From: Eledone cirrhosa | Taxonomy: Eukaryota | Assembly: GCA_964016885.1 (NCBI GenBank) | Contig: OZ024741.1 | Coordinates: forward strand, 345,092,001 to 345,156,000 | Direction of reading: 5' to 3' | DNA: 64,000 bases | Part shown: piece by piece, positions 23,613 through 53,295 of the stretch | Layout of the letters: every line of letters starts with the position of its first letter | How positions within the stretch are numbered: position 1 is the first letter of the stretch | The notes under the pieces: generated by a model | What the model was told of the DNA's origin: nothing | Database searches by the model: none | Seen by the model: only the letters and a program-made list of their open reading frames with translations | Translations under genes and position numbers: made by a program

Positions 23613-23671
<59 letters not shown>

Positions 23672-23738
23672 CTACACATAGAACACACATACACACACAT
23701 ATATATAAACATATACATATACACACATACACACATAT

Positions 23739-23807
<69 letters not shown>

Positions 23808-24324: not shown

Positions 24325-24357
<33 letters not shown>

Positions 24358-24918: not shown

Positions 24919-24961
<43 letters not shown>

Positions 24962-26028: not shown

Positions 26029-26075
<47 letters not shown>

Positions 26076-28493: not shown

Positions 28494-28515
28494 TGCCTAA
28501 AAGACCATTTAGGCA

Positions 28516-30441
28516 TTGAAAAGACCACACTTCAACCTGAAGGATCATAAATCAAACTTTAACTCAAATCCTTCTATAAGACTTATATGTCCCTCCAAAT
28601 CAGATATTGGAATAATTAGCAAAAAAATTTTGGATAGAGTCATCCCACAAATAAGAAAACACGTTATTTTACCACTCTGGGAAAACACCTCCCAGGTAAT
28701 TAACTGGTTTAAAAATATTAGATGTAAATCTTCTGCTTCATTTCTACAATTTGATATAGATAATTACTATTCTTCTATATCACCTATACTCCTGAACAAA
28801 GCATTGATATTTGCTAAAAATAGATCTAACTTAACTTTGGATGACATTAATATTATTACACATGCTAGACTAACACTTATTGAATTTCAGAATGAATACT
28901 GGACCAGAAACACATATAGTAATCTATTTGATATTACTATGGGTTCAAGCGATTCCGCCCAAATTACTGATCTTGTGGGCCTCTTTCTCCTTTTCAACAT
29001 AAATGCCTCCTTTCCCCACCTCAAAGGTGGTTTATATCGTGATGACTGTCTTCTTCTTTCTAACAACCTTAGCCTTTCAGAAATTGAAAAAAACAAAAAA
29101 CATATTAGAACTTTCCTTAAAGACTATTATAATCTTCATATTACTTTTGAAAAAACAAGTAAAGTAGTAAATTTCCTAGATATAACTTTAGATTTAGCTA
29201 CGGGTATCTACCAACCTTACCATAAACCAAACCAAAACTTACATTACATACACTCACAATCTAATCACCCTAAATCTATCCTTAAAAACCTTGCATATAA
29301 TATATCACTTAGAATTTCTAACCTTTCTTCTAACCAAGATGTATTTGATAAAAATGCGACCTTCTATAACGAAGCTCTAGATAGAAGTGGCCACAAAAAT
29401 AGATTAGAATATATACCTTCTACTAAAAATACTAAAAGCATACAACCTAATATTACCAACAAACACCAAATGAAAAGTACACACCTAAATGCCACCCACA
29501 CTATACCCCAAAATACCAAATCTTCTAATATAAAATATAGTAACTCTCAAAAAACTACTCATCATACAACTCTAATAAATATTAATAATAAAACTCCTAA
29601 TAAAAAAGATAAAACACCTAAATCTACAAATATAACTAAAAATGGTTGTGGTGAGATCATTAACATTAATCCTCCTAGTAAACATCACGATACAACCTAT
29701 AAAAATAATAAAAATAATAAACAACATAGAAACCGTAATAGACGGGTTACTTGGTATAATGCTCCATTTAATTTACAAATTAAGGATAATATTGCTAAAA
29801 AATTTTTTTATATCCTAGAGAAAAACTTCCCGCCAAACCACAAATACCATCAAATCTTAAATAGGTCTACAGTTAAATTCTCATACTCAACAACAAATAA
29901 CATAAAACAAAATATAAGTGCCTATAATGCATATAAATGTAAGAAAACCATAAGTATACCACCAGTACATCAAATTAACCATAATATCTCCTCAAATACA
30001 GAATTAACGAAAGGTTGTAACTGTAGAAACAAAGCAAACTGCCCATTAAAAGGGAATTGTCTTGTTAACAACATAGTCTATAAATGTAATGTTAAAACTA
30101 AAGATTCTATTTGCTCATATATAGGAGCTACTTCTAACAATTTTAAGACAAGGTTTAATACCCACAAGCATAGTTTTAAAAATGCCGCACTGGCTAATAC
30201 AACATCTCTAGCAGAAAAAATCAATAGTTATAAAAATAAGAATATAGAATATGATTTGACCTGGAGTGTGCTCAAAAGAGCCACCCCTTATCAAAATAAT
30301 AGAAATGAATGTAGATTATGTTCCCAAGAACTATTTGAAATAATGAAATCCAAGGATATCCTATTAAATAAACGACAGGAATTAATTATATCGTGTAATC
30401 ATAAACTAAAAAAAACATTTAAATATTATAAACCTAATTAA
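28516..30441 (+). CDS. PLE polyprotein (reverse transcriptase + GIY-YIG endonuclease), 5'-truncated open frame
   Basis: Identical 641-aa translation to 26568-28493, with the same motifs. Confidence 0.92.
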   Translation: MKRPHFNLKDHKSNFNSNPSIRLICPSKSDIGIISKKILDRVIPQIRKHVILPLWENTSQVINWFKNIRCKSSASFLQFDIDNYYSSISPILLNKALIFAKNRSNLTLDDINIITHARLTLIEFQNEYWTRNTYSNLFDITMGSSDSAQITDLVGLFLLFNINASFPHLKGGLYRDDCLLLSNNLSLSEIEKNKKHIRTFLKDYYNLHITFEKTSKVVNFLDITLDLATGIYQPYHKPNQNLHYIHSQSNHPKSILKNLAYNISLRISNLSSNQDVFDKNATFYNEALDRSGHKNRLEYIPSTKNTKSIQPNITNKHQMKSTHLNATHTIPQNTKSSNIKYSNSQKTTHHTTLININNKTPNKKDKTPKSTNITKNGCGEIININPPSKHHDTTYKNNKNNKQHRNRNRRVTWYNAPFNLQIKDNIAKKFFYILEKNFPPNHKYHQILNRSTVKFSYSTTNNIKQNISAYNAYKCKKTISIPPVHQINHNISSNTELTKGCNCRNKANCPLKGNCLVNNIVYKCNVKTKDSICSYIGATSNNFKTRFNTHKHSFKNAALANTTSLAEKINSYKNKNIEYDLTWSVLKRATPYQNNRNECRLCSQELFEIMKSKDILLNKRQELIISCNHKLKKTFKYYKPN

Positions 30442-30933
30442 TAACATTATTTTAGAAATTAATTTAATTTAAATGTTAGTTAACCTATAAATTTAATTTA
30501 ATTAAAATTCTACTACAGATGAGAATATAAAATATTGTGTAATCATAAATTGTGAAAAACCTTTAAATATTACTAATATATACTTAGTAATTTAATTTAT
30601 AGATTAATTTTAATTTATTTAAACCTTTTATTAAAATTCCTTTACAGATAAAATATAACAAAATATCGTGTATCCAATGACAGAGAAATAATTTTTAGTA
30701 TTATAGACCTAATTAATATACATTTTAGAAATATATTTATAATTTGGTTTTAAATTTAGTCAACCTAAAAATTTAATTTAATTGGCTTAAAATTAGTATC
30801 CTAATACAGACGGATTGCAGAGTGTCATGTAATCATAGAATGGGATGTGTTTTGGATGTATACCTAGTTAATATATTCTTTGCAATTTTTGAAAAAATAT
30901 GTATATGTATGTATGTATATGTATGTGTATGTA

Positions 30934-31006
<73 letters not shown>

Positions 31007-31999
31007 ATGTATATGTATATGTATATGTATTAATTTTGATTTCTATTTGCATATAATTATATTCTGCTATTGATAAAATACAATATCTGTTTTATTTATT
31101 ATATACCTAATTAACATATACTATAGAAATTAATATATAATTTTTAATTTAGTTAACCTATAATTTATATTCTACTACCGATGTAATACTTTATTTGTTT
31201 TTTCCCTATTACTAAATTCATTTCCTAATATTGATACCATAACGTTAATAACTTTAATTTAGTTATACTATAATTAATACTCTACTACTATTTAACTTCA
31301 AAATTCTGCTTCAAATATTATAAACCTAACTAATTTACACCTTAGAAATCAATATGTTAACTATCTTTAGTTTAGTTAACATATAATTAATGGTATACTT
31401 ATTTTGAAATGCATAATTTTGCCTTATTTCTTGCATTTCCTAACACTGAAACTATGTAAAAACATATATTGGGATCCAGATACAGATAATATTCTATGTT
31501 TCTTGAAACATATATTTACTATAATCCCCTTCTCCACCCCCCCCTTTCCCCCATACTATTATCATCTGTGTTTGTAAGCGTGTATGTATGAATATATATG
31601 TAGGTTGGTGTATATATGTTTGGGTGTTTATATCTGAATATAAAAATACATATATGCGCATGCAAATAAGAATGTAAGATTGTGTGTATATATATGTGTG
31701 TATGTGTATATATATGTGTATATATGCATGTGTATGTATATGTGTATATGTATATATATATATATATGTGTATATGTGTATATGTGTGTGGGCGTGTATG
31801 TGTGTGTGTATATATATATATATATGTGTGTATGTATGTGTATGTATATGTGTGTATATATATGTATGTCTCTCTATATATATGTCTATCTTCGTATCTA
31901 TGTGGGTATATGTGTGTATGTACATGTATGCACATGTATATGTTTATGTGTATATGTGTGTATGTGTATATATGTACGTGTGCGCACATATATATGTGA

Positions 32000-32037
<38 letters not shown>

Positions 32038-32662
32038 GTATATCTATGTGTGTATATATGTCTATATTCGTATGTGTATATATATATATATATATATATT
32101 ATTTATTATTATAATATAACTTATGTGTATGTGTGTATATGTGAGGGTGTGTATATGTATATATGTGTATATATATGTGTAAAAATATATATGTGTATGT
32201 GTGTTTTTTGTGTGTGTGTATATATATGTATGTATATATGTGTGTATGTGTGTGTTTGTATGTGTGTTTATGGTTGTATGTGTGTGTGGGTGTATATATA
32301 TAAATGTATGTGTATATATATATATATATGTGTATATGTATCTCTATTAATGTGTGTATATATGTATATGTATATACCTTTTTCTTTGTATGTCTGAGTT
32401 GTGTGAGAGTGTAGTGGTGTTTGTATGTATATACGCATATATGGATGCGTATGTATTTGTATATATGAGTATATGTAAGTGCGTATGTATGTATGAATAT
32501 ATATCTATGTCTATGTATGAGTATATATGTGTGTGTATGTATGTTGTGTGTGTATGTATGTATGTGTCTATGTGTGTATATATATATATATATATGTGTA
32601 TATGTATGTATGTATGTGTATGTAAGTACATATATGTGTATGTATATGTGTATGTGTATATA

Positions 32663-32699
<37 letters not shown>

Positions 32700-33216
32700 T
32701 TATTTTATATATATGTGTGTGTGTGTATGTGTGTGTGTGTATATATATCTTTATATATGTGTATGTGTATGTTCGTGTAGGTGTATGTGTGTGTATGACT
32801 ATATATGTATGTGTGTATGTGTGTATGTATGTATATGTATGTGTGTGTACATGTATGTATGTGTATGTATATATATATGTGTATATGTGTATGTATATAT
32901 ATATATATATATGTGTATATATATATATATGTATATGTATCTCTATTTGTATGTGTATATGTGTATAGGTATATACCTTTTTCTTTGTATGTCTGAGTTG
33001 TGTGAGAGTGTAGTGGTGTTTGTATGTATATACCGATATATGGATGCGTAAGTATTTGTGTGTATGTATGTATGTATGTATGTATGTATGTATTTGTGTG
33101 TATATATAGGTATGTATGTGTATATCTGTATGTATATAAGTATGTATGTGTATGTATATGTGCGTGTATGTGTATATATATGTGTGTCTATATATGTATG
33201 TGTGATTATATGTGTA

Positions 33217-33265
<49 letters not shown>

Positions 33266-33333
33266 ATATGTGTGTATGTGTGTATATGTATATGTTTATA
33301 TATATGTGTGTGTATGTGTGTTCTATGTGTAGA

Positions 33334-33387
<54 letters not shown>

Positions 33388-34015
33388 ATTGATATATTTC
33401 TTTTTTCTTTTTTCTTTTTCTTTTCTTTCCTTTTTATTTTTTATTTTTTATTTCTTAGTTTATAGATACATCTATAAATAAGCAGTCTGCCCAAACCGTT
33501 GAATACTGACCTATCCCCCCCTCCCACCTAATTTCTGTATCTTGATCTAAGTGTGTGTGGCAGTGTTTATGTGAGTGAATTAATATCCATGTGCTTATGA
33601 TAATATTATATCCACATATATATATGTGTGTGGGGGTGTGTGTGTGTATGTATGTTCGTAATTATGTGTATGTTTATGCATATACGCGCGCGTGTGTGTG
33701 AGTGTACGGATATGTGTGAGTATGAGAATATGTGTATACACTTATTTCATATTTATGTGTCTATACGCATCTTATCTGTGCATTATAAACTTACAGAGAC
33801 ATTAGCCTTGAAATTTTGTATTTGCATGCATCTTTTTGGCATGCGTATGCATGTTGAGCATACATCTTTGTATAAATATGTGTACGGGGTAGTTACATGT
33901 ATATACACACACCAAACTGCATAAAACCTTTTGTATTTTCATTGGTCAATTTTGAACTCTGTTCCCAAACGGACCTGAAATTTTGAATTGTTGTTATTAT
34001 CAATAAATATATTTA

Positions 34016-34164
34016 ATTATTTCTGAAGACGGCGTATATGTGTGTTTGGTATGTATATTTAATCTTGATAGTTTGTATAATTTTGTATAATTTTGTACAT
34101 AGATCTGTTGAATATGCATGCCAATTCTAACACATATATATCCTAGAAACGATCATTAAATAAT
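34016..34164 (+). ncRNA. PLE-associated hammerhead motif with G>A change in stem III
   Basis: ATTATTT-CTGAAGA...GAAA-CGATCA-TT-AAATAAT (left arm has CGATCG). Confidence 0.65.
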
Positions 34165-34221
34165 GAACTTTTTTTGTTTAATATAAGGAACTGTTTCATT
34201 GTTTTATTCATTATTTGTTTA

Positions 34222-34262
<41 letters not shown>

Positions 34263-34864: not shown

Positions 34865-35496
34865 GTATGTGTGTGTGTATGCATGTGTATATGTATGTAT
34901 ATATGTATATTCTGTCTGTAGATTGTAGACATACAGATACATTAGCCCCAAATTTTTATATTTACATACACTTTTTCAACATACGTATACATATGAGCAT
35001 ACATTTTTATGCACATCTGTGAACGGATTTACATACATATATACACACACCTAACTGTATTTTCTTGATGAATTTTTATGTATTTCATTGGTCTATTTAA
35101 AATCTGTTCCCAAACAGACCTGTAATTTTGAATTGTTGTTATTATCAATAAATATGCATCATTATTTCTGAAGACAGCATATATATGTAAAGGTATGTAT
35201 ATTCTATCTGATAGTTTGTATAATTTTGTACATAGATCTTTTGAATATGCATACCAATTCTAACACATATATGTCCTAGAAACGATCGTAAAATAATGAA
35301 CTTTTTTTGTTTAATATAAGGAACTGTTTCTTTGTTTATTCATTATTTTTTTAATAATTTATCTTGACTCTGTATTCCGTTTATCTTTCACCGAAAGTGA
35401 TTTTTGAATGCATCTCTTCTTTTCATGATATCCGGATTACATTGAGTTCTTCATACGGATTGGACACTACCGTAAACTTTTGGTAGATTTATCTAC
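34620..35496 (+). mobile_element. Diverged tandem copy of the PLE 3' end (pseudo-LTR-like)
   Basis: Collinear but diverged homology to 33440-34230, plus the terminal ~135 bp matching the reverse complement of 22636-22770. Confidence 0.8.
35160..35298 (+). ncRNA. PLE-associated hammerhead ribozyme, long stem II
   Basis: CATTATTT-CTGAAGA...GAAA-CGATCG-TA-AAATAATG. Confidence 0.75.
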
Positions 35497-36065
35497 ATAT
35501 ATATATATATATATAAAATATATATATATATATATATAAAATAACAGATTAAAGTTTAAGCAAAGAATCGCTGCTTTCACCCTTAACGGGATCTTCTGAA
35601 ACTAAAATAATCAATCTGTGAACGCCGAAGTAAATATTTCGAAAAAAGTTGCAACCGAAGCAAAACAGGAAGACGATAATTTGGTTCGTGAAGACGTCAT
35701 AATGTCGTAATGCAGACAGCCAGACAGACAGATATTATAAGGGTGCAACGTTGTAGCTATCTATCTATCTAAAAAGACAGACTAAGAGGGAGAGAGAGAG
35801 AGATCGCTTTTTCGCCTAATGCGGTCCCTAGGGCATTGAACATTTGAAATATTTGAAAATTTGAAATATTTAAAAGGAAACCAAACAAGCAAACCAAACT
35901 TTACACATGTAATACTTATTACATGTGTAAAGTTTGAAAAACATCGGTTGGGTTGTTCTCGAGTTTTAGGGAGTCAGACAGACAGACAAACATTCTCTGT
36001 TTTAGATATACAGATTACTGGTTGGTTGGTTCAATAACCGGATGGTCAAAATTGTTTCGTCACAC

Positions 36066-36141
<76 letters not shown>

Positions 36142-36185
36142 GGACAGAGTGAGAATCTGAGAGAGTAAAAGAAAGAAGGAGAGAA

Positions 36186-36960
36186 TAGGTATTTTTATCA
36201 GTATATATATTTGTACAATAAATGGGAGTTTTATACAGAAATTATATGTGGTAATTGGATAAATTTGTGCCAGCATCTGCGGTTATACAAATAATTAAGA
36301 TTAAAAAGATTTGGTTGAAAATAAAGTAATATAATATTATTTATGAGGAAAGATTATAATGAGTTTTTAGGTAAAATTTATATATAAAATTTGATTGTTT
36401 TTTTTTTGTTTTCTTTATTATAAATGCTTTGAAAATTCAATAATAAACTAGGATTATATTCCTTATTATTGATTTGTAAAAATAAAGTTATTTTACCTGA
36501 GTATTATGAATTATGTTTACTTTTATAAGATTACGTGTTTATTTAAAACTTAAAAAGTTTGGCGGTTCTACATATCCAATTAGGTGAGCTTGTTAATTTA
36601 TTTGATAATACTCAATTTAAACTAACTTTTTTTTGAAATTGTATATAAGTTCAGTTTGTATATTGCTGTCGTCAGTTTATGTTTTAAGAATTATGTTAAA
36701 AGACTAGAAAATATTTAAATTTTTATGTCAAGTCATAATGCATCTTATAAAGAAGGTTTAATGAGCTACTATAGTTAATTTTATTTTATTCCGGATTTAA
36801 AATTATATATTTTTATAGAAAGGTGGACTTAATAGTAATTTTTAATTAGTGTGTATATGTGAATAATGGTTTTGTAGGGTGTACATATCGCCCGTCACTC
36901 TTGTTATTTAGATAAGATAAGTCGTAACATAGTAGAGGTAATGGAAATTGTTTCTGGATT
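36186..36960 (+). rRNA. rrnS: Mitochondrial 12S rRNA (NUMT copy, 5'-truncated)
   Basis: GTGCCAGCATCTGCGGTTATAC, GTACATATCGCCCGTCAC, AAGTCGTAACATAGTA motifs. Confidence 0.9.
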
Positions 36961-36974
36961 TATATAATAAAATA

Positions 36975-37044
36975 CAAGAATTAACATAAGTATAATGTGT
37001 CTCACTTACGTTGAGAAAATATTTATTGATTTAATTATTTTTGA
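36975..37044 (+). tRNA. trnV: mt tRNA-Val (NUMT)
   Basis: TAC anticodon in CTCA-cttacgt-TGAG arm; between rrnS and rrnL. Confidence 0.75.
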
Positions 37045-37858
37045 AAGTTAATAAAATAGTTATTATTTAAATAGTTTAGATTAAAAATTTTAAATAGAAT
37101 TAGTAAGAGGGTTAGAAGAATGTTAAAATTGATTGTACTGAAAAGGGTGTTTAAAAAAATTAATGTATAGTAAATATTAATGATTGTATCTTTTGTATAA
37201 TAGATTAATAATATTAATAAGTAAATATTAGGTTCTCGAAATAGGAAGATTTATTTATTATATTGGTTTGTTAACGTGGTAAAGTTATATATTTAATAAT
37301 AAATGGTAGTGAAATGCTATTCGATTTTTATGGTAGCTAGTTTATTATATAGACATTTGAGTGTGTATTATAATTAAATTATAATTAATAATTGGTTTTA
37401 ATATAAATTTGGGGGAAAAGCTTCTTGTAAAGTGTGGTGAGAATTAAATTTAATATAATAATTTGGTTTAAGTGAAATTAAGAGTTTATCTTATAATTAA
37501 AAATAACTTTTATATTTATTAATTTTTCTTTATTTGATGATTAATAAATTATTTATAATAATTGAATAAATTATATATAATGTTAATATGAGTATTTCAG
37601 TGAATATAAAATATATATAGTTATAAAGGTATTAAATAAATCTATCTGGTGATGTAGCAATATTATTTTAGTTTAAAATAATTAAATATAGTAAAGGAAT
37701 TTAGCAAATATTAATTTCGCCTGTTTATCAAAAACATGTCTCTTTGATTAGATATAATAAAGAGTTGGGCCTGCTCGGTGATATTTTTAACAGCTGCGGT
37801 ATTATAACTGTACTAAGGTAGCATAATAATTTGCCTTATAAATTAAGGCTAGAATGAA
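37045..37858 (+). rRNA. rrnL: Mitochondrial 16S rRNA 5' part (NUMT, 3'-truncated)
   Basis: CGCCTGTTTATCAAAAACAT and AAGGTAGCATAAT motifs; breaks off after CTAGAATGAAT. Confidence 0.9.
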
Positions 37859-37895
37859 TTGGAAGTTATAGATTAAATGTATATTTATTTTTTGA
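37859..37895 (+). pseudogene. trnP: 3' half of mt tRNA-Pro (NUMT)
   Basis: Begins at TTGGAA (TGG anticodon) and ends TTTTGA immediately before nad6, the expected position. Confidence 0.6.
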
Positions 37896-37896
37896 T

Positions 37897-38409
37897 ATGG
37901 GAATAGTTGTAATGTTTTCAATAGGGTTTTCTTTAGTGAGGATATTATTAATTTTAATTCAACCATTGAGGTTAGGGTTTATAATTATAATAATTAGTAT
38001 TTATATAAGAGTTTTGGTTTCTTTTTTTATTTATTCTTGATATGGATTTATATTATTTTTGGTTTATATTGGGGGTTTATTAGTTATATTTATATATATT
38101 ATTAGATTAATTCCTAATTTAATTTTTTTATCTAAAGGTATAATGGTTTATTTGTTTATATTAATAATTGGTTTTTTTATTATAAATTACTATGTTATGG
38201 AAAGATTAATGGATTTAGTAGTTATAAAATTTGAATATTTAGAGTTTAATAATTTAAGAATGTTTTCTTCTACTTTATTGATGAGGAAATATAATATTTT
38301 AGGATATATTTTTTTAGGAATTATTTTGTTATTGGTATTAATTAGTGTTGTTAAAATTTGTTATTATTGTGAGGGGGCTTTACGAGTTTTTAAATATAAA
38401 TATGCTAAG
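37897..38409 (+). pseudogene. nad6: nad6 (NUMT)
   Basis: SWYGFMLFLVYIGGLLVMFMY...EGALR in the invertebrate mitochondrial code; end approximate. Confidence 0.85.
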
Positions 38410-39539
38410 TTCGTTACGAAAAACACATCCTGTTTTAAAAATTGTTAATAGGGCGTTGATTGATTTACCTTCTCCTGTAAATTTATTTATTTGATGGAAT
38501 TTTGGGTCTTTATTAGGATTATGTTTAATTATTCAGGTTTTAAGGGGATTATTTTTGGCTATACATTATACATCATGTGTTGAATATTCATTTGATTCAG
38601 TTATTCATATTATACGGGATGTTAATTATGGTTGAGTTTTACGTTATATTCATGCTAATGGAGCTTCTTTTTTTTTTATTTGTCTTTATTTACATATTGG
38701 TCGGGGTTTATATTATGGTTTATATTTAAATGTATATACTTGAAATGTTGGTGTGGTATTATATGTGTTGGTTATATTAACTGCATTTGTAGGATATGTT
38801 CTTCCTTGAGGTCAAATATCATTTTGAGGGGCAACAGTAATTACTAATTTAATATCAGTAGTACTTTATATTGAGGAAAGTTTAGTGTATTGAATTTGAG
38901 GAGAATTTTCTGTAGATAATGCTACATTAAGACGTTTTTTTTGTTTTCATTTTTTATTTCCTTTTGTAATTATAGGTTGGTTATTTTACATTTTTTGTTT
39001 TTACATGAAATAGGATCTAACAATCCTTTAGGGGTAAATAGGAATTTAGATAAAATTCCTTTTCATCATTATCATAGGTATAAGGATGTTTTAGGGTTTT
39101 TAGTTATAATATTTTTATTAGTTGAGTTAAGTTTATTATCTCCTAATATATTAGGAGATGCAGAAAATTTTATTCCTGCAAATCCGTTAGTAACACCTAT
39201 TCATATTAAACCGGAGTGATATTTTTTATTTGCATATGCAATTCTTCGTTCTATTCCTAATAAAATAGGGGTGTTATTAGTTTAATAATATCAATTTTAA
39301 TTTTGTTTTTTTGTCCTCTTTTTCATATTAGAGGGTGTACTGGGTTAAGATATAATTTTTTGTCTCAATTTTTTTTTTTATATTTAATTGGAGTATTTTT
39401 TATTTTGACATGAATTGGGGGGTGTCCAGTAGAGTATCCTTATGAGTTAATTGGACAAATTTTTAGGATTATATATTTTGCTTGTTTTTTATTTCGACCT
39501 ATTTTAGATTATTTATGAATATATATATCAGAATATTAA
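38402..39539 (+). pseudogene. cob: cytochrome b (NUMT, frameshifted)
   Basis: [47 protein letters not shown]; -1 frameshifts at ~38977 and ~39268. Confidence 0.92.
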
Positions 39540-39601
39540 GTTATATTGGATGAGAGGAGATTTTGAAAATCTTTTATAAGTGTTCGATTCACTTGTAACT
39601 T
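39539..39601 (+). tRNA. trnS2: mt tRNA-Ser(UCN) (NUMT)
   Basis: TGA anticodon arm AGAT-tttgaaa-ATCT; GTTCGATTC T-arm. Confidence 0.8.
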
Positions 39602-39602
39602 T

Positions 39603-39670
39603 AGTTATAGAAATATTATATTTAATTTTGGTTTACAAGACCATAGTTTTATATTTTAAACTACTATAAC
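39603..39670 (-). tRNA. trnT: mt tRNA-Thr (NUMT)
   Basis: Minus strand TGGT-cttgtaa-ACCA arm; acceptor GTTATAG/CTATAAC. Confidence 0.8.
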
Positions 39671-39674
39671 GTTT

Positions 39675-39971
39675 ATGATTATAAATAATGGATTGTTATT
39701 AGGAGGATATATATATATATGTGGGTTAATTATTTTAATATTTCAATGAAAACATGTTTTAAATATATTATTAGGATTTGAGGTGTTGACATTGAGGGTG
39801 GTATTTATATTAATATTTTCTTGAGGTTATATTAGATTAAGAATATATATAGTTATTTTATTGATTGTTTTGGGGGTTTGTGAAGCTTCTTTAGGTTTAT
39901 CTTTATTAGTTAGATTTATTCGTCTTCATGGAAATGATTACGTTGGAAATATAAGTGTAATAAAATTATAG
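39675..39971 (+). pseudogene. nad4L: nad4L (NUMT)
   Basis: 297-nt frame ATG..TAG with VCEASLGLSLLV...HGND. Confidence 0.88.
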
Positions 39972-41309
39972 GTGTAGTATTTAGATTATTAAGTATATTA
40001 TTTGTTGTATATTGGAGTTGAGAATTACGTTTTTGGTTTATATTAGTTTTTAGATTTTTAGTATTTAAATATTTAATAGTGGATAATTGAGGAATATATA
40101 TATATATTATTTTTATGTAGATAGATTATCAGGTGTATTGGTATTATTAAGATTATGGACAAGAAGATTAATGTTATTGTCTAGGTATAATTCTATTAAA
40201 ATTAATAATAATAAAGTTTATATTTTTCTTTATGTGTTTTATTATTATGTTTAGTGGTTATATTATTTTTTTTAATAGATAATATACTGATATTTTATTT
40301 GTTTTTTGAATTATCTTTAATTCCAACGTTGTTTTTAATTTTGGGGTGAGGATATCAACCGGAGCGTTTGCAAGCTGGTATATATATAATAATATATACG
40401 GTAATGGCTTCTTTACCGTTGTTATTATGTATTTTATTAATAAGATATTATGAGGGAACTGTTAATATAAATATATATATATATGAATTTTGAATTTAGA
40501 TGTTTATTGATTTGTAGGATTATTATTTGCTTTTTTAGTAAAATTACCTTTATATTATTTTCATTTATGATTACCAAAAGCTCATGTTGAGGCTCCTATT
40601 TCAGGTTCAATAATTTTAGCTAGAGTATTATTAAAATTAGGGGGGGGGGTATGGTATTATACGATTTTTATATTTGTTTAATTTTATAAGAGGATTTCAT
40701 ATTAAATTTTTAATAATTTTATGTGTATGAGGTGGTATTATGACATCTATTATTTGTGTTGGTCAAAGAGATATTAAAAGGTTAATTGCTTATTCGTCAG
40801 TTGGTCATATAGGAGTTATATTAGGAGGAATGATAAGGGGGTTTATTTTAGGTTGAGAAGGTGCTTTATTAATAATAATTTGTCATGGAATATGTTCATC
40901 TGGATTATTTTGTTTAGGGAATTTAATTTATGAGAAAGTAAATAGTCGAAGTTTATTTTTATATGGGGGAATAATTAACTATAATCCTATAATAAGTTTA
41001 TTTATATTTTTATTATGTATTTGTAATATAGGAGCTCCTCCTTTTGTGGGGTTAGTATCTGAGGTTATATTATATATATCTTTATATATATATAGATTTT
41101 TTTTTATATTATTTATTATTATTATAGTATTTTTAGGTGGATTATATAATTTACTAATATATGTAATGGTTCAACATGGGGAAATAATAAGTTTTATAAA
41201 AGTAATAAAAATTAATAAGAATAATGAAAATTTACTTTTATTGTTACATATTATTCCTTTATTAGGGTTTATTTTAAATGTTGGTTATATTAGAAAAATA
41301 TTTTTTTAA
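39968..41309 (+). pseudogene. nad4: nad4 (NUMT, frameshifted)
   Basis: [34 protein letters not shown]; frameshifts in (AT)n ~40100 and poly-G ~40640. Confidence 0.92.
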
Positions 41310-41373
41310 ATGAAATTAGTTTATTTAAAATACTAGGTTGTGGGCTTAGAGAAAAATATTATTTTATTTCATT
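41309..41373 (+). tRNA. trnH: mt tRNA-His (NUMT)
   Basis: GTG anticodon; acceptor AATGAAA/TTTCATT; between nad4 and nad5. Confidence 0.78.
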
Positions 41374-43051
41374 ATGAAGAAATTTTCTATTGAGTATTTT
41401 TTTAGAATAATATTGATATTATTTTCTTTTTTTGGGATAAGAATGTTTATGTATTTAGTGGTTAATAATTGCTGTTATATTATTTCTTGGGAAATTTTTA
41501 GGGTAATAAGATTATTTGTAGAGTTAGATATTTTATTTGATTGAGTGAGATGTAGGTTTAGGAGATTAGTTTGTTTAATTTCAAGTTCGGTTTGTATTTT
41601 TAGATTAAGATATATATATGGTGATATTAATAGAAAACGATTTATAATTGTTTTAATATTGTTTGTATTATCTATAAATTTTTTTATTTTTATTCCTAGA
41701 TTTATTAGATTGGGTTTAGTATCATTTTGCTTAGTAATTTATTATCAAAATAATAAATCATTAAGGGCAGGAATATTAACTGTATTAATAAATCGAGTTG
41801 GAGATTGTTTTATTTTAGGAGGAATTAGAATAATGGTTTTATTGGGACATTGAAATTACTTGTGTATTTGGTATTTTTTTTTTTTTTTTATATTTGTATA
41901 ATTTTTATTGTAATTGCTGGTATAACTAAAAGAGCTCAAATTCCTTTTAGAAGATGATTACCTGCTGCTATAGCGGCACCTACTCCAGTATCTGCGTTAG
42001 TTCATTCTTCTACTTTAGTAACGGCTGGGTTTTTTTTTATTAATTCGATTTTATAATCATTTATTAAATATTAGTGGGTTTTGTGAATTTATTATATTTA
42101 TTTCTATTATAACTACATTTATATCTGGTATTTGTGCTATTTTCGAGTATGATATAACAAAAATTATTGCTTTATCTACATTAAGACAATTGGGAGTAAT
42201 AATAATATCTTTAGGTTTAAAGATACCTATATTGAGATTATTTCATTTGTATACACATGCGATGTTTAAAGCATTATTATTTATATGTGGTGGAAATATT
42301 ATTCATTGTTATATAGGTATACAAGATATTCGTGATATTAAAGGTGTTTGTTATAATTTACCTTTTACTAATTTAATTATAAATATTTCTAATATGGCTT
42401 TATGTGGGTTGCCTTTTTTAGCTGGATTTTATTCTAAAGATTTAATTATTGAGAGATTGTTAAGAAGAAATATAAATATAGTGTTGGGTATATTAGGACT
42501 ATTAGGTGTATGTTTGACAATATTATATTCTATACGTTTATCTATATTTATATTATGGAGAGATGTAGTTAGAATTAATTATGAAGATATAAATGATGAT
42601 GATAATAATATTATTATATCTATATTAATTTTATCTTTAGGAGCTATATTTGGTGGATTATATTATCAAAATATAACTATTTATTTTAATGAAATTATTA
42701 TTTTACCTTTTATATATAAAAGGTTAGTTTTATTGTTATTGTTTTTTTCTATAATTATTTCGTTAAGAATAAATAAAATTTATAAAAAAGTTGAATTAAA
42801 TATAGTTTATTGATTTAATAGAAAAATATGATTTTTATCTTTTTTAAGGGGATATCCTTTTTTATATTTTATAATAAACATTAGTAATATAAATTTAAAA
42901 TCTGTTGATATAGGATGGTTTGAATTGGTAAGTGGTCAAGGGATTTTTTTAATATTAAAAAATTTTATAATTATTATGGAACGATGAATAATAGTTTTTT
43001 TTAATATTTATTTAATAATTGTTTTTTTGTTTATTATATTATTTTATTTAG
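41374..43051 (+). pseudogene. nad5: nad5 (NUMT, frameshifts and internal deletion)
   Basis: [47 protein letters not shown]; the conserved GWDG segment is missing at ~41708. Confidence 0.92.
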
Positions 43052-43111
43052 ATAGCTTAATTTATAGAGCATAACGTTGAAGGTGTTAAGGTGATATTTT
43101 TATCTTTAAAT
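43046..43111 (+). tRNA. trnF: mt tRNA-Phe (NUMT)
   Basis: TAGCTTAA D-arm; TAAC-gttgaaggt-GTTA with GAA anticodon. Confidence 0.78.
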
Positions 43112-43142
43112 AAATAAATATTTATTTATTTATATTTTTTAT

Positions 43143-43844
43143 CTATTGATGGTTATCTGAATATAAAGTAATTAAAAGAGAAAAAATATAACCTTGAATA
43201 ATGGCAATACCAATTTCGAAGATAAAATATCCTGTTTGAATTAATATAGTAATTATGATAATAGATGATGAAAATATAGTAATATTAAGAATAGATGATG
43301 CTAAAAGGTCTCCGATTAAAATTAAAATAATATGGCCTGCCCTAATATTAGCAGCAATTCGGATAGCTAAGGTTACAGGTTGAACTATAATTCTTAAGAA
43401 TTCGATAAGAGGGAGAAAAGGAATTAAAAATGATGGAGTACCAGAAGGTAAAAGGGAGGCTAGAGATGAATATGGATTATTTTTATAAGATGATAGTATT
43501 AATCTTAATCATAAAGGTAGCGATAAAGAAAATGATATAACTAAATGTCTTGTTGTTCTAAATACATAAGGGATTAATCCCAACAGATTAAAGTTAATGA
43601 TTAGTAAAAATAACGATGACACGATTAAGGAGAATCCTCCTATTTTTATTCTAAAAGATCGTGTAATTTGGATATTAATAATTTGATTGGGAATTATAAT
43701 TAATGAGTATCTTTTTGAAGGATGAATTCAGAGAGATGAGTTAATAAAAAAAAGGGATCAAATTGATAAAATTCAAGTTAGGGAATGGAGATATATGGTT
43801 GTTGAGTTATGATCATCAAATGAAGAAAAAATATCTACTATCAT
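43143..43844 (-). pseudogene. atp6: atp6 (NUMT)
   Basis: MMVDIFSSFDDH start; TLAIRIAANISAGH; QGYIF. Confidence 0.88.
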
Positions 43845-43845
43845 T

Positions 43846-44005
43846 ATATTATCAGCTATATTTATTTATTTTTTTTTTTTTTTGAATTGTTATTTGAGGA
43901 ATAAATGTTATGATTATTTCATCATATAATAGATGAGTTTAAAAATATAATTATTCAGAATATAGAAAATAAAAAGATTCAATTTAATGGTGATAATTGA
44001 GGCAT
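43846..44005 (-). pseudogene. atp8: atp8 (NUMT)
   Basis: MPQLSPLNW N-terminus. Confidence 0.85.
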
Positions 44006-44006
44006 G

Positions 44007-44078
44007 AAAAAAGTACTAGGATTAATAGTAAGTAATTTAAATTTGACAAATTTATGTTATTAATTTAACTAACTTTTT
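44007..44078 (-). tRNA. trnD: mt tRNA-Asp (NUMT)
   Basis: GTC anticodon on the minus strand; between cox2 and atp8. Confidence 0.72.
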
Positions 44079-44771
44079 AATTGATTAATTAATTATATTA
44101 TATAGTCAATTATTAAATGTATTTATATTTACAATTTCGAGGGTAATTGGTATAAAAGAATGATTTGCTCCGCAAATTTCTGAGCATTGACCATAAAAGA
44201 TTCCAGGACGACTTGAATATAAATTTACTTGATTAAGTCGTCCTGGAATTGCATCTACTTTTAAACCTAGAGATGGAATAGTTCATGAGTGAATAACATC
44301 TGATGAAGAGATAATTATTCGTGCATTTGTTTTTATAGGTATAATAAGGTGATGATCGGTTTCTAGAAGTCGAAATGTTCCTATATTAAGTTCTTCAGAG
44401 GGTGTTATATATGAATCAAATTCAATGTTTATAAAATCTGAATATTCATATCTTCAATATCATTGGTGTCCTAATACTTTAATTGTTAATAAAGGGTTAA
44501 TTGATTCATCTAATAAATATAATAGTTTTAATGAAGGAAGGGCTAAAAATAGTAAAATGATTCTTGGGATAATTGTTCAAATAGTTTCGATTTTTTGTCT
44601 TTCAGAGATTATTAAACAGGAAAATTTGTTTGTTATTAAGAGGACTGTAATATATATAACTAATGTAAGAATAACGGTGAGAATAAATATAGCGTGATCA
44701 TGGAAAAAAATTAACTGTTCTATTAAAGGAGAGTTTGCATCTTGAAATCCTAATTGTCCTCACTGGGTCAT
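44078..44771 (-). pseudogene. cox2: cox2 (NUMT)
   Basis: [43 protein letters not shown]. Confidence 0.92.
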
Positions 44772-44779
44772 AAATAGTA

Positions 44780-46319
<1,540 letters not shown>

Positions 46320-46321
46320 AT

Positions 46322-47332
46322 TTAAAATATGATGGGAATAAAGATTAATGTAATTGTTATATTAATACATATAATTTTTTTTAGATTTATTTTTATTTTG
46401 TTAATTTTTATTATATAAAATGATTTTATAAATATTCTTATAAGTATATTTAGATAAAAGTATAATCTAATTAATGTGGAGGTAAGTAATAATATTGATA
46501 ATATTAATATGTTTATAGATAATAATATATTCAAAATTATTAGTTTTGATAAGAATCCTATTATTGGTGGTATTCCACTTAAAGATAAGATTAATATAAT
46601 AATAAAGATGTTTTCTTTATTTAAGTTATAATTATGATGACTTAAAGAATATATAAATAGGTTGGATTTTGAATTAAAATATAAAAATAAGGGTATAATA
46701 ATTAGTATATAAATTAGTAAATATAGTATTATTAAAAGATTATTAATTGAACATGAGGCTAATATTCAACCTAGGTGGGAAATAGAAGAATATACTATGA
46801 TTAATTGTAGGTTTGTTTGATTAATTGCTTGTATTCTTCCTATAAATCTTCTTAATAATGAGGAAATAATAATAATAGTGTAATTGAAATTAATAAATGA
46901 TAATATAAATAAAGGTGCTAATTTTTGTCATGATAAAATAAAAAATAATATTATTCATCTTATTTGTTTACATATTCTTGGAAGTCAAAAGTGGAAAGGT
47001 GCACTTCCTAGTTTAATGAGAAGTGATACAATTATAATGGAGGAAAATAGAGAATTATTAAATATAGAGTATATAGATAAAGAGTATAAATATATAAAAA
47101 TTATGGATATTATAAAAATTGATGAGCTAAATCTTTGGATAATAAAATACTTTATAGATCTTTCAATTTCGTAATTTTTTGATTTAATGTTTATTAGAGG
47201 GAGGATACCTATTAAATTTAATTCTAATCCTATTCATATTATAAATCAATGTGATGATGATAATGAAATAATTGTTCCAAATATTATTATAGTAGTAAAT
47301 ATAAAATTAGCAGGGAAAAATTTATTATTCAT
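46322..47332 (-). pseudogene. nad2: nad2 (NUMT)
   Basis: WMGLELN, KYFIIQ, KLGSAPFHFW, YSSISHLGW, LSGMPPMMGF. Confidence 0.88.
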
Positions 47333-47401
47333 AAAGAGTAGTACAATTATGAATTGCTCAAATTAAAGTTAGCAGCTTTAATTTATAACATTATTACTCT
47401 T
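47333..47401 (-). tRNA. trnS1: mt tRNA-Ser(AGN) (NUMT)
   Basis: AAAG-ctgctaa-CTTT arm (GCT); no D-arm. Confidence 0.75.
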
Positions 47402-47750
47402 ATATTCAGTTTAATGATCCTTGATTTCATTCATGAAGGAGACCAATAATTAAAATAATTAAGAAAATTATAGCTGATGATAAAAATACAATTGATGGGG
47501 ATGATATAATATTTATAATTATGGGTATTAATAGGATAATTTCGATATCAAAAATTAGGAAGATAACTGCTAATAAAAAAAATCGTATAGAAAAGGGGGA
47601 GCGAGTATATCAAGATGGATCAAATCCACATTCAAAAGGTGAATTTTTTTCTCGATCTTTAGTAGTTTTAATTATAGTGATATTTCTGATAAAAAATAAT
47701 ATTATATTTAATAAAGATAAGAATATTAAAAATAATAAGGTGGATATCAT
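47400..47750 (-). pseudogene. nad3: nad3 (NUMT)
   Basis: 351-nt frame; REKNSPFECGFDP, FLIFDIEI, HEWNQGSLNW. Confidence 0.9.
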
Positions 47751-47818
47751 AAGTATAGAAGATAATTTTTCTTATTTTTTATAACATCAATATAATCCGT
47801 TCATTCCGGCGCTATACT
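47751..47818 (-). tRNA. trnI: mt tRNA-Ile (NUMT)
   Basis: GCCGGAATGAACGGA D-arm; GAT anticodon. Confidence 0.8.
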
Positions 47819-47887
47819 TTCAACAAAGAAAATATTTTCAGTTTTTTAATTAACAATTAAATGCCTCTATTTTGGCTTTTTGTTGAA
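47819..47887 (-). tRNA. trnN: mt tRNA-Asn (NUMT)
   Basis: GTT anticodon; acceptor TCAACAA/TTGTTGA. Confidence 0.75.
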
Positions 47888-47888
47888 A

Positions 47889-47947
47889 CAAGGGTAATAA
47901 AATACCTAATTATGGGTCGAAACCATATATGAAATTTCATTTCTTGA
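47889..47947 (-). tRNA. trnR: mt tRNA-Arg (NUMT)
   Basis: ATGG-tttcgac-CCAT arm (TCG). Confidence 0.75.
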
Positions 47948-47953
47948 GTAGGG

Positions 47954-48022
47954 TGGTATTAAATAGATATTTTCTATTTCTTTTTAAGTGCAAATTAAAT
48001 TTTCTTTGTAAAATATAATACC
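47954..48022 (-). tRNA. trnA: mt tRNA-Ala (NUMT)
   Basis: TGC anticodon; acceptor GGTATT/AATACC. Confidence 0.72.
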
Positions 48023-48087
48023 ATTAAGGATTATAATAATCATTTTCTAAATTAAAAGTCTAGTGCTTAAATTTTCGGCCACTTAAT
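48022..48087 (-). tRNA. trnK: mt tRNA-Lys (NUMT)
   Basis: TGGCCGAA D-arm; CTAGA-cttttaa-TTTAG arm (TTT). Confidence 0.75.
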
Positions 48088-48868
48088 AATATGATCCTCA
48101 TCAATAAATAAAAGTATATAGAAATAATCAAACAACATCGACGAAATGTCAATATCATGCAGCTGCTTCAAATCCAAAATGGTGGGATGATGAGAAGTGA
48201 TTTATAATAATTCGGATTAAACATATCAATAAAAAGGTTGAACCAATAATAACATGAAGTCCGTGAAATCCTGTAGCTACAAAAAAGGTTGTGCCGTAAA
48301 TACTATCAGAAATTGAGAATGAAGCTTCAATATATTCTATTGCTTGTAGGGCGGTGAAATAAAATCCTAAGGAGATGGTAATAATTATAGCTTGAATGGC
48401 TGGTTTAAGGTTATTTGTTATAAGAGAATGATGTGCTCAAGTTACGGAAACTCCGGATGATAGGAGAATTGCAGTATTAAGAAGAGGAATTTGGAAGGGG
48501 TTAAGAGGATAAATATTAATAGGAGGTCAACATGCTCCGATATCTATATTAGGGGCTAATCTTCTATGGAAATAAGCTCAGAAAAAAGCAAAAAAAAAAC
48601 AGATTTCTGAGATAATAAATAAAACTATTCCTCATCGTATTCCGTTATACACTTTTGAAGTATGAAATCCTTGGAATGTGCTTTCACGGATAATATCTCG
48701 TCATCATTGAATTATTGTTAAAATTATAAGAGAAAATCCAAGTATTAATAGTAAGGTTCCGTAATTATGAAATCATGAAGATAATCCAGTAGTTAAAAAT
48801 AATGCTCTTATAGATCCAGTTAAAGGTCATGGTCTAAATTCAACTAGATGGAATGGATTTCGGGTCAT
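48083..48868 (-). pseudogene. cox3: cox3 (NUMT)
   Basis: [38 protein letters not shown]. Confidence 0.92.
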
Positions 48869-49949
48869 ATATATACATATATATATAAGTATTATTTATT
48901 GTTTTGTTAAAGTATTAAATTGATTTTTATATATTTACAAATTTATATGTGATTTTATGATGTGTATTTGTGAAAAATAGATAAAGTTGTCAAGAAAAAG
49001 AAGACCATAGAGGGAGTTTTTTTATTTAAAAAAACTGATTATTATATATTATATAACTATTGTATATTCTTAGTAAAAATATATTTAAAATAAATGAATA
49101 AAATTCTATTCTTCTATTATCATTAAATCTAAATTAATATTATCTTTAAATTAAATTTTATTTAATTAATTAAATTATATATGATTATTTTAATTTATAT
49201 TATTATCCCTGCTTTTAAATAAATAAATTTTATACGTTATAACTTATATTGGTGTCCCTGCTTTTAAATAAAATTGTTTTAAATAACAGAATTATACTTA
49301 GATATTAATAATTTTATTATTATTTAATTATAATTATTTATTTTATAAATAAACCGTAATTGGAGTATTATAATTAATATAGTTATAATGTATTTTAGTT
49401 ATGATAACTTATAAAAGTACTTTAATTTATTATATAATAATATTTATTTAATAAATTGAATATTGGGGCCTGTGCCTCTGGTATTATAACAAGATCTGCC
49501 TCAGGTTAGTTAGATTAATTGTTTTTTTCTTCAATATATACTAAGTTAATTTAGATATCAAAAAAAAAAAAGAATATACTGGGATTTATAAATTTCGTTC
49601 GTATCGAGTATAGATATATATATAATTAGTTTTTGGTTGTTTTATACTTATATATTATTTAAAAATAATATAGATTTAATTTTCTAGTTAATTTATTTTT
49701 GTTAAATTAAGCTATATAATTGGTCTTTATAAATTAATATATATTGTTTAAAAAAAAAATGTTTTAATATATTGTTTAAAAGTAATGATATTTTTGAAAG
49801 GAAATATTTTAAAGTTATTTTATGGTTATTATTTTTTTGATTATTTAGTATACAAGATTGTGATGTATATATTAATATTAATACTAATTGTAAATGTTTA
49901 TATAATAAATAATATATATATATAAATATATAAATATATATTATTTAAG
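48869..49949. other. Mitochondrial control region (NUMT)
   Basis: ~1.08 kb AT-rich non-coding stretch between cox3 and trnE; repeated TCCCTGCTTTTAAATAAA motif. Confidence 0.8.
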
Positions 49950-50020
49950 GTTCTTATAGTGTAATAGGCACGAAAGATTTTCAATTTTTAGGGATGAATT
50001 TTAATAATTTATTGAGAATA
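49950..50020 (+). tRNA. trnE: mt tRNA-Glu (NUMT)
   Basis: GTTCTTATAGTGTAA start; TTC anticodon. Confidence 0.75.
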
Positions 50021-50021
50021 T

Positions 50022-50090
50022 ATTTTATTAGTATAAATAAGTATAATTATTTTCCAAATAATAGGTTTAGATATAATGTTAAATAAAATA
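50022..50090 (+). tRNA. trnG: mt tRNA-Gly (NUMT)
   Basis: TTATT-ttccaa-ATAA arm (TCC). Confidence 0.75.
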
Positions 50091-50091
50091 A

Positions 50092-50159
50092 TATAATTTG
50101 GTGTATGGGCATGTAAAGTTTTGATCTTTAAGGGAAAGGTTCAAGTCCTTTTTTTGTAA
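50092..50159 (+). tRNA. trnQ: mt tRNA-Gln (NUMT)
   Basis: TAAAG-ttttgat-CTTTA arm (TTG); GGTTCAAGTCC. Confidence 0.78.
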
Positions 50160-50227
50160 AGAGTTTTAAGTTAAAATAAACTGTAAATTTTCAAAATTTA
50201 AAATAAATATTTGTTGTTTAAATTCTG
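50160..50227 (+). tRNA. trnW: mt tRNA-Trp (NUMT)
   Basis: TAAAT-tttcaaa-ATTTA arm (TCA). Confidence 0.75.
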
Positions 50228-50296
50228 TATGAGGTGGTCGAAATAATTTTAGTCGGTAGATTGTAAATCTATTTATAAGTAGTAACTTTCTCATGG
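50228..50296 (+). tRNA. trnY: mt tRNA-Tyr (NUMT)
   Basis: TAGA-ttgtaaa-TCTA arm (GTA). Confidence 0.78.
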
Positions 50297-50358
50297 TTTT
50301 ATAATTTATATTAAAATATTAAATTGCAAATTTAAAAATACATTTTTGTTGAAACTTT
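50296..50358 (+). tRNA. trnC: mt tRNA-Cys (NUMT)
   Basis: TTAAA-ttgcaaa-TTTAA arm (GCA); last mitochondrial gene before nuclear sequence resumes. Confidence 0.75.
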
Positions 50359-50576
50359 ATTGATAGATATACACACAACACACACGCACACATCAATTAC
50401 GGATTTTGTTTGTCGCTATATATGACATGATTTTGTAACTTATTTCTGGCAATATTATTTTCTTTTTAGCGCTACAATGTCAAACAATAATGATCAATCC
50501 TCGATCGTAAAATATGTACGTTGTGCTGTTGCCGCTGCTGTTGCTGGTGCTGGAGTATATGCATTATATTCCAACT

Positions 50577-50765
50577 AGGGCGGTGAATTGGCAGTATCAG
50601 TAGAGGGTTGGACGCCATGCTTTCTAGCATAGTTACGTCCCTTTACGGTTTGAGTTCAAATCCCGTCGAGGTTAACTTTACCTTTCATCCTTACGGGGTC
50701 GATAAAATAAAGTACCAGTAGTGTACTGGGTAATTGCTGGCCTTGTGCCAAAAGTAGAAACAATT
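50577..50765 (+). mobile_element. tRNA-derived SINE (second family)
   Basis: B box GAGTTCAAATCCC followed by CTTTCATCCTTACGGGGTCGATAAAATAAAGTACCAG. Related minus-strand copies at ~7510-7640 and ~56470-56620. Confidence 0.7.
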
Positions 50766-51346
50766 ATATTCCAACTATTCAACAAATGAGTCAAAGCTGT
50801 GTTCTCGTCGCACCGTTACACATGCAACCGAACACATAAACACAACTCAATTGGGATCGGTAACAAACAGAACTATACATACCGATTGCGAAGAACATTT
50901 CTCTAATAAAAAAGAAACAATATCAAAAAAGTCCATTCATAAGGGCAACGAGTAATAACAAGTTCCTTGAATCCCTTTAATGAAAATGAATTTGATTCAG
51001 AAATTCTTCATAAGGTATGAAGTTACATAACTACTCTCGATGAGTCAATATATTAATATCACCATGGTTCATTGCACTCTTCAAAACATTGTAAACATTC
51101 TAAAATATTGTTCAACTAATATATAATAATAAATGCATTGAAAAATGGAAGTGAAAAATAAATCATTTGTCTTTATTTTCTATCTGTTTTTAACATTCTA
51201 TCTTATTTACAAAATTATAGAAATTAGCAAAACGACGCCTTCTAGATAGTTTGTTTTCGACTTGTAATATAATCATCTTTTTTATATAAATAGAATTATG
51301 GTGTCCTATGTCCTCTTTTCAATTGTAATCTATAATGTGTTGAGAG

Positions 51347-52388: not shown

Positions 52389-53255
52389 TTACTTATTTAT
52401 ACTTCTCTTTGTTTGGGTGTTGTTGTTGTTCCACTCATTCTTTCTGTTTAGCTTTGGTCTTCTAATTTCTATTTCACTGGCCTCTCTGATTTGCCTATCT
52501 GCTGGGTCATTCCTATGTTTAGATATTATTCTAATTTCTATGTTGTCTATGTTACCGTCATGTTGTTGTCTAGCATGTTCGTATAGTACTGACCCGTTTT
52601 TTCGTCCTTTTAGTTCCCCCCAGTGTTGGTCTATCCTTTCACCTATGCTACGAGCTGTCTCACCTATGTATGTTGTTGTCATGTTTCTGCAAGTACCCTC
52701 TGTACATCTTATGCTATAGACTACGTTTCTAGTTTTACAGTTTATCCGGGGGTTCACCTTACATATGATACATTTCCTATTGGTACAGTGGGTTTTCTTA
52801 AAAGGGTAGGTTTTGCTGATCAGGGATTTTATGGTGGTTCCTGGCTTTTCTACCACCTTTATTTTTAAGTGGGTCTTTCTCAGGGCCTTTCTACACTGGT
52901 TAGCTAATTTCCCTCCAGGGGTGGCGTCCACAAACATGACACTCTGATATCTCTGGTTGTCGTACCATGATGTGGCCTTCCCTATCTTACGTCTAGCCCT
53001 ATCTAAGCTATTCCATGATTTGCTCCTGTATAGTGGGCAAATTCCTTTCATGTCCAGTTCTATGAGGGTCTTATACTTTTCCATGGCTCCTTCGTATACT
53101 CTGACTCTGTCACTTTGGTTGTAGCCAGAGAACTGCATGCGGTTGATGAAGTGTTGGATGTGTCTTTTCATTTCTGTTGGGTCGCACATGCTGGACACAT
53201 TCTTCATCACTCGTACCAAATCTGCGATCAGAATATTAAACTTGTTTCGACACAC
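52389..53255 (-). mobile_element. Penelope-like element 3' fragment of a different family (thumb/linker + GIY-YIG)
   Basis: RMQFSGY, PLYR, VMFVDATPGG, C....C..C, VVYSIRC...YIGETARS..ER..QH, H....H, RQIREA..I....LN; 288 codons open. Confidence 0.85.
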
Positions 53256-53295
53256 GATTTCATATAAAAAACCTCGCTAAACTAATTCATCGCCG

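Follow-up and report, generated by a model that had tools for sequence, protein, structure and literature searches.

A large mitochondrial DNA insert in the nuclear genome of the octopod Eledone cirrhosa

The insert and its match to the organelle

A stretch of 64,000 nucleotides from the octopod Eledone cirrhosa, here called the window, holds most of a mitochondrial genome as a nuclear mitochondrial DNA segment (NUMT). The window corresponds to positions 345,092,001–345,156,000 of scaffold C2, which is 416 Mb long and belongs to an assembly (G000) of 3.0 Gb in 1,796 contigs. The reference for comparison is the mitochondrial contig of the same assembly, C1796 (16,147 bp). The cox1 protein of this contig matches the Eledone cirrhosa cox1 in nr at 100% identity and those of other octopods at 96–97%, and the best match of the contig's cob and nad4 is again Eledone cirrhosa.

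Two blocks of the window are colinear with C1796. Positions 36192–37859 match mt 7620–9290 (97.3% identity, E = 0), and positions 37858–50360 match mt 10938–16147 followed by mt 1–7361 (96.1% identity, E = 0). They form one insert covering 88% of the mitochondrial circle; tandem head-to-tail mitochondrial units are not seen in the window. Over 14,125 aligned sites, the Kimura two-parameter (K2P) distance to the organelle is 2.8%, with 2.17% transitions and 0.54% transversions, and about 380 substitutions separate the two sequences. A near-complete mitochondrial genome in nuclear DNA had been proposed in an earlier sequence-only reading of the window, and the proposal stands on the two E = 0 blocks, the 416-Mb scaffold and the nuclear flanks. 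The right end given there, 50360, is exact; the left end, 36186, is not, as the match begins at 36192.

Gene content and lesions

The insert retains the control region, 12 of the 13 protein genes (all but nad1), 18 syntenic tRNAs and one half of trnP. The 12 genes are those expected from the sequence-only reading, and its estimate of ~19 tRNAs is a fair one for 18 tRNAs plus the 3′ half of trnP. The 18 were accepted at syntenic places among 22 ARAGORN calls (option -mt), the other four being rejected for their positions inside rrnL, nad2, nad3 and the control region. Rfam detects one tRNA at the gathering score and four by E-value. Opening of the circle removed mt 7362–7619, comprising trnM (mt 7361–7430) and ~190 AT-rich bases that may be the 5′ end of rrnS, and the reported absence of trnM at this point is thus real. 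An internal block of 1.65 kb (mt ~9291–10939) is missing as well, with the 3′ part of rrnL, trnL1, trnL2, nad1 and the 5′ half of trnP. This deletion, at 37859/37860, explains both the absence of nad1 and the shortened rrnL; its junction shows a 2-bp ‘AT’ microhomology and occurs once in the whole assembly. The incompleteness of rrnL had been recognized from the sequence, the internal deletion had not.

Seven of the 12 protein genes are open under genetic code 5 (Table 1), and frameshifts, mostly in base runs, occur in cob, nad4, nad5 and cox1. Stop codons created by substitution are absent from the 3,333 codons compared (18 skipped for gaps). In nad5, the 21-bp deletion that removes the GWDG segment is flanked by 5-bp direct repeats, and the 21 bp are intact in organelle contigs of run X5, one of four read runs from other individuals (X1, X2, X5 and X6) whose assembled contigs were compared over window positions 35000–45300. 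Two substitutions singled out in the sequence-only reading together with the GWDG loss, GGF to GEF in cob and FDP to FYP in cox1, are likewise real: the first (G>E at 38903) replaces a residue that is G in 17/17 relatives and the second (D>Y at 45668) a residue that is D in 47/47. Further changes at invariant residues are G>E at 38873 and W>L at 39378 in cob (17 relatives) and F>L at 45365 in cox1 (47 relatives). Altogether, frameshifts, deletions and five changes at residues invariant in 17–47 relatives are the lesions expected without selection.

Table 1. Features of the insert and its flanks (window coordinates)
Feature	Position	Strand	Remarks
Left nuclear flank	35550..36191		high-copy repeat, (TG)35, purine-rich tract
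Whole insert	36192..50360		single colinear NUMT, ~88% of circle; from alignment to C1796
rrnS (12S)	36192..36974	+	start = mt 7620; private cluster of 3 substitutions and a 2-bp deletion at 36457-36469
trnV	36975..37044	+	
rrnL (16S), 5′ part	37045..37859	+	truncated by internal deletion
Junction of 1.65-kb deletion	37847..37871	+	
trnP, 3′ half	37860..37896	+	break in anticodon loop
nad6	37897..38406	+	open frame
cob	38396..39539	+	1-bp deletions at 38977 and 39268; three changes at invariant residues (two G>E, one W>L)
trnS2 (+), trnT (-)	39538..39670		
nad4L	39681..39971	+	open frame
nad4	39974..41309	+	four frameshifting indels in runs: 40094, 40223, 40471, 40640
trnH	41309..41374	+	
nad5	41374..43044	+	frameshifts at 41874 and 42030; in-frame loss of 21 bp at 41708
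trnF	43045..43113	+	
atp6 and atp8	43143..44005	-	atp6 open frame; 3′ A-run of atp8 differs
trnD	44006..44078	-	
cox2	44085..44771	-	open frame
cox1	44780..46319	-	three insertions in 3′ half; barcode stretch 46281-45624
nad2	46322..47332	-	open frame
trnS1 and nad3	47333..47747	-	nad3 open frame
trnI, trnN, trnR, trnA, trnK	47750..48088	-	
cox3	48083..48868	-	open frame; 25 synonymous and 0 non-synonymous differences
Control region	48878..49944		5.9% divergent; lacks one of the organelle's 49-bp repeat units
trnE, trnG, trnQ, trnW, trnY, trnC	49950..50357	+	insert ends 3 bp further, at first base of trnM
Right nuclear flank	50361..50800		220 bp single-copy, then high-copy repeat

Nature of the differences

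Coding differences between insert and organelle number 257 in the 3,333 codons, 210 synonymous and 47 non-synonymous, and 196 of the 257 fall at third positions. The proportions of synonymous (pS) and non-synonymous (pN) differences are 0.102 and 0.0059, a 17-fold synonymous excess (pN/pS 0.058). This pattern is opposite to that of error or neutral decay and indicates that most differences arose in functioning mitochondrial DNA (mtDNA). Synonymous divergence is even over 11 gene sets (chi-square p = 0.29), which points to one donor molecule.

To which side the changes belong can be read with a third sequence, the larger copy of a NUMT cluster on scaffold C8 (1,782 codons). Organelle-only differences are 100 synonymous and 9 non-synonymous, insert-only differences 17 synonymous and 8 non-synonymous, and two sites differ three ways; C8 sides with the insert at 109 of the 134 sites where it matches either insert or organelle. 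Likewise, the insert keeps the majority residue of relatives in cox1 (44896, L in 43/47) and nad4 (40520, L in 30/32). From these sequence comparisons, most differences are likely later changes in the living mtDNA line, and the insert for the most part preserves, as a fossil, an earlier mtDNA on which little decay has been superimposed. Nuclear substitution after insertion amounts to ~0.4% (0.2–0.6%). No insert-private change is found at 113 CpG positions, a number uninformative on CpG decay. The frameshifts checked at 39268 and 40094 are absent from the C8 copy, hence the insert and C8 are separate insertions.

The description of the locus as a genuine NUMT and molecular fossil is borne out by colinearity, nuclear flanks, lesions and synonymous-rich divergence. 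‘Decaying’, the further term used for it in the sequence-only reading, is true of the lesions and of the ~0.4% substitution, but decay accounts for the smaller share of the divergence: among the 257 coding differences, 210 are synonymous.

Position of the donor

Older NUMT fragments, found by gene-wise searches of the Eledone genome itself, served as outgroups, with relatives' proteins for cox1, cob and nad4 only. The set comprises 48 fragments of at least 15 codons and leaves out the C8 copies and one member of a duplicated pair. Simple three-way counts at first pointed to a ghost donor, and likelihood models cut this support to weak. A two-phase model, combining a mitochondrial phase with a neutral nuclear phase over second and third positions, gives log-likelihoods (lnL) of −9039.35 when the donor stands on the trunk of living mtDNA, −9037.77 when insert and C8 form a side clade, −9040.38 for the third tree and −9040.60 for a star. 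Under this model, the private mitochondrial stem of the insert is ~0 (a stem of 0.02 costs 6.1 lnL units), and nuclear decay is 0.0039 for the insert and 0.011 for C8. Its rate-ratio profile is soft, since class multipliers can rescale, and was not relied on. With one clock, the trunk tree (−9043.66, rate ratio 19) is ahead of the side-clade tree (−9051.31) by 7.7 units, and an insert decay of 0.002 or 0.006 costs 2.9 or 1.9 units, respectively. In 1,845 non-coding sites, private changes are 16 in the insert, 12 in a NUMT on scaffold C7 and 29 in the organelle. On these models, the donor likely stood on or near the ancestral trunk of today's mtDNA.

Origin and rival explanations

The insert is very probably a non-functional NUMT comprising 88% of the E. 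cirrhosa mitogenome, captured likely in one piece from a donor on or near the ancestral mtDNA line. A linearised mtDNA molecule would have been joined into a double-strand chromosome break by end joining, a route suggested by the lack of any target-site duplication visible in the junction sequences and by short microhomologies at both internal deletions (2 bp and 5 bp). After capture, the insert would have drifted slowly and neutrally. Meanwhile, living mtDNA would have evolved about 20–30 times faster than the insert at silent sites, and most differences would then be ancestral states that the insert has kept. Its age may loosely be put at about 1–9 million years. No new mechanism is needed for what is a large, well-preserved and ordinary NUMT.

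Several observations tell against parts of this account. An empty insertion site was not found (the right flank is single-copy, with no paralogue), so that end joining is reached by inference. None of the listed contigs of the four runs, which are fragmentary, bridges 36192 or 37859; contigs drop rare variants, and absence of a bridging piece is evidence neither way. As to the donor, the outgroups are short, decayed and saturated NUMTs and the likelihood model is an approximation of our own; without a clock the side-clade tree lies 1.6 lnL units above the trunk tree; imposing a strict clock on the trunk tree costs 4.3 units relative to the free model, implying that nuclear rates differ 2–3-fold between loci; and four-way patterns, with one outgroup per site, join insert and C8 at 27 sites, insert and organelle at 12 and the third pair at one.

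Missing junction-spanning sequence is what a mis-join would leave, with organelle reads, or a NUMT from elsewhere, wrongly built into scaffold C2. Simple repeats abut both ends of the insert, where such errors happen, and C1796 itself has indel slips, so the assembly does contain errors. The flanks themselves are nuclear: on the left lies a repeat at very high depth, on the right 220 bp that are single-copy in the assembly, followed by a repeat occurring at no fewer than 51 loci among those retrieved. Against a mis-join stand the ~380 codon-patterned substitutions, the 109 differences in common with the independent C8 NUMT on another scaffold, the unique 1.65-kb deletion junction and a window with no N (scaffold gap) anywhere in it. 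High-depth organelle contigs of X2, X5 and X6 carry the C1796 alleles, their substitution counts against the window lying within 1 of the C1796 count in 14/14 ranges. At 37859, where the window passes directly to trnP, these contigs carry on through rrnL. The codon pattern, the C8-shared states and these organelle contigs also show that the differences are not polishing errors, the outcome that the sequence-only reading had set against itself. An assembly artefact is thus most improbable, and at most the placement of the insert could be wrong, not its nuclear nature. Still harder to credit is a second mitogenome, functional now or until recently (by heteroplasmy, as a paternal type or from a contaminating relative), or an expressed nuclear transfer. 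The seven open frames and the low pN/pS are in keeping with function, but the deletions, which remove or truncate nad1 and four tRNAs, refute a functional mitogenome, and four frameshifted genes and changed invariant residues also speak against it. Expression from the nucleus is made unlikely by TGA stops, which cut the genes under the nuclear code, only four fragments of at least 130 residues overlapping the insert.

A more serious rival, though still an unlikely one, derives the insert together with the C8 and C7 NUMTs from a ghost lineage, a side branch of mtDNA that vanished or was replaced, or from a past mitochondrial capture. It draws on the 27 sites just mentioned, where insert and C8 stand against organelle and outgroup, on 94 of 196 synonymous differences falling on the insert's side with the 48 outgroup fragments, and on a side-clade tree 2.8 lnL units above the star (internal branch 0.026). 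Several of the shared changes are transversions or non-synonymous, and the three largest NUMTs have common non-coding indels against today's mtDNA. However, the insert-side share grows with outgroup distance, from 14/42 at pS 0.1–0.2 to 61/110 above 0.35, which is a mark of repeated hits at biased sites, and a one-phase gamma model reduces the side-clade branch to 0. Nor does the insert have a synonymous stem of its own. C8, whose decay is roughly threefold that of the insert, is a misfit to a young shared side branch, which fares 7.7 units worse under a clock. If the ghost lineage were real, an Eledone mitochondrial lineage now extinct would survive almost complete in the nucleus, which would also record its replacement by sweep or introgression.

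The insert also has evolutionary value, as it keeps 12 genes of an ancestral octopod mitogenome. Combined with the older NUMTs, it gives, for the first time in an octopus and from a single genome, a rough estimate of how fast silent sites in mtDNA change relative to nuclear sites, a ratio of about 12–29 (19 with one clock).

Consequences for barcoding

A risk for COI and 16S barcoding had been proposed for this locus, and holds for COI. The barcode stretch (46281–45624) is 658 bp long, open and free of indels, and differs from the organelle at 17 positions (2.6%), with one amino acid change. At the places which, from their motifs, we take to be the COI primer sites, the forward site is identical to the organelle, and the reverse site differs by one substitution and an added base. 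Of the 10 nuclear cox1 matches found in the assembly, that of the insert alone is full-length. Judged from its sequence, insert COI would pass routine pseudogene filters, and studies of barcodes, diet or environmental DNA could mistake it for a cryptic lineage of Eledone. For the standard 16S amplicon the proposed risk does not hold: the insert retains the forward site (37718), but mt 9704, where the reverse site is located, falls inside the deleted block. Elsewhere, a 3-kb rearranged NUMT at C7:86,772,950–86,776,114 (rrnL, trnL1/L2, a tRNA cluster and rrnS; 94–98% identical to the organelle) carries both standard 16S primer sites.

Relation to known systems

Like NUMTs in general (PMC9140377), the insert is organelle-derived, colinear and non-functional, keeps ancestral mtDNA states and is a single dispersed copy; it differs in being unusually complete (88% of the circle). 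The human/hominine NUMT ps5 is large and has a synonymous-rich stem of its own, read as the trace of a diverged donor (PMC9140377). Both are large and differ from living mtDNA mostly at synonymous sites; unlike ps5, the insert has a private mitochondrial stem of ~0, though it may have a weak stem shared with C8. The 7.9-kb numt of felids, a tandem macrosatellite, can contaminate mitochondrial data (10.1101/2022.04.04.487049). The Eledone insert is similarly of several kilobases and a possible contaminant, but it is a lone copy without tandem repetition, and the closer analogue is the C8 cluster. In another octopod, Tremoctopus violaceus, COI-like nuclear copies were suspected from products of the polymerase chain reaction (PMC8749848). 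The disturbance of octopod barcoding by suspected nuclear COI copies is common to both cases; here, locus, extent and junctions are visible in an assembly. Among the papers searched, mostly non-subscription and without supplements, neither an Eledone NUMT nor a NUMT survey of an octopus genome was found, and an earlier mention is possible.

Other NUMTs, the mitochondrial contig and neighbouring repeats

The C8 cluster spans 72 kb (C8:31,271,000–31,343,000) and comprises many tandem units of control region, tRNAs, rrnS and 5′ rrnL, with two rearranged coding blocks. Its units form near-identical pairs or are otherwise 2–3% or more apart with many deletions, resembling a tandem numt of the felid type. 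In run X2, some sites are covered at low depth by sequence lacking the organelle allele, which may come from the C8 or C7 copies; this cover was not used. An old NUMT with cox1, nad2 and nad3 (71–75% identity) lies at C2:115.16–115.19 Mb, in two copies ~19 kb apart. Searches of the Eledone genome detect no nuclear protein-gene fragment closer than 97–98% to today's mtDNA; either the genome may lack NUMTs of very recent origin, or assembly may have removed them.

Contig C1796 has frameshifting indels of its own, three in cob, one in nad4 and one in nad3 (listed positions mt 11945, 12016, 12305, 13619, 4543 and 8579). Read around its indels, the contig's cob equals nr E. cirrhosa cob at 368/368 residues compared, and the gap counts of the X2/X5 contigs cannot accommodate the indels in cob and nad4, which are likely consensus slips. 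Programmed frameshifting was considered for organelle cob, nad4 and nad3 and rejected for cob and nad4 in favour of such slips. The nad3 indel is absent from both the insert and the C8 copy.

The surroundings of the insert are rich in repeats. An 11.5-kb near-perfect palindrome (22770–34230, centre 28502–28507) ends 2 kb to its left, and its arms differ by seven substitutions and 12 gaps of microsatellite length over 5.7 kb. Each arm carries the same 642-residue open reading frame (ORF), directed away from the centre (26568–28496 minus and 28513–30441 plus). Pfam finds nothing in it, and its Atlas neighbours have HTH_animal, RVT_1 and GIY-YIG domains. By these resemblances, the palindrome is likely a Penelope-like retroelement in inverted arrangement; alternatively, it may be a fold-back assembly artefact. 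In the four flanking ORFs searched (4/4), Pfam detects no family. Tandem and inverted 466-bp units, 99–100% identical, occupy 18722–21216. A fragment at 6414–6857 is presumably LINE-like (LINE, long interspersed nuclear element), to judge from a motif, and has no Pfam match. Older Penelope-like pieces are found on the minus strand at 52389–53276 and 59291–61607, the latter sharing, over 59291–60502, 36% identity with the palindrome ORF along 266 residues.

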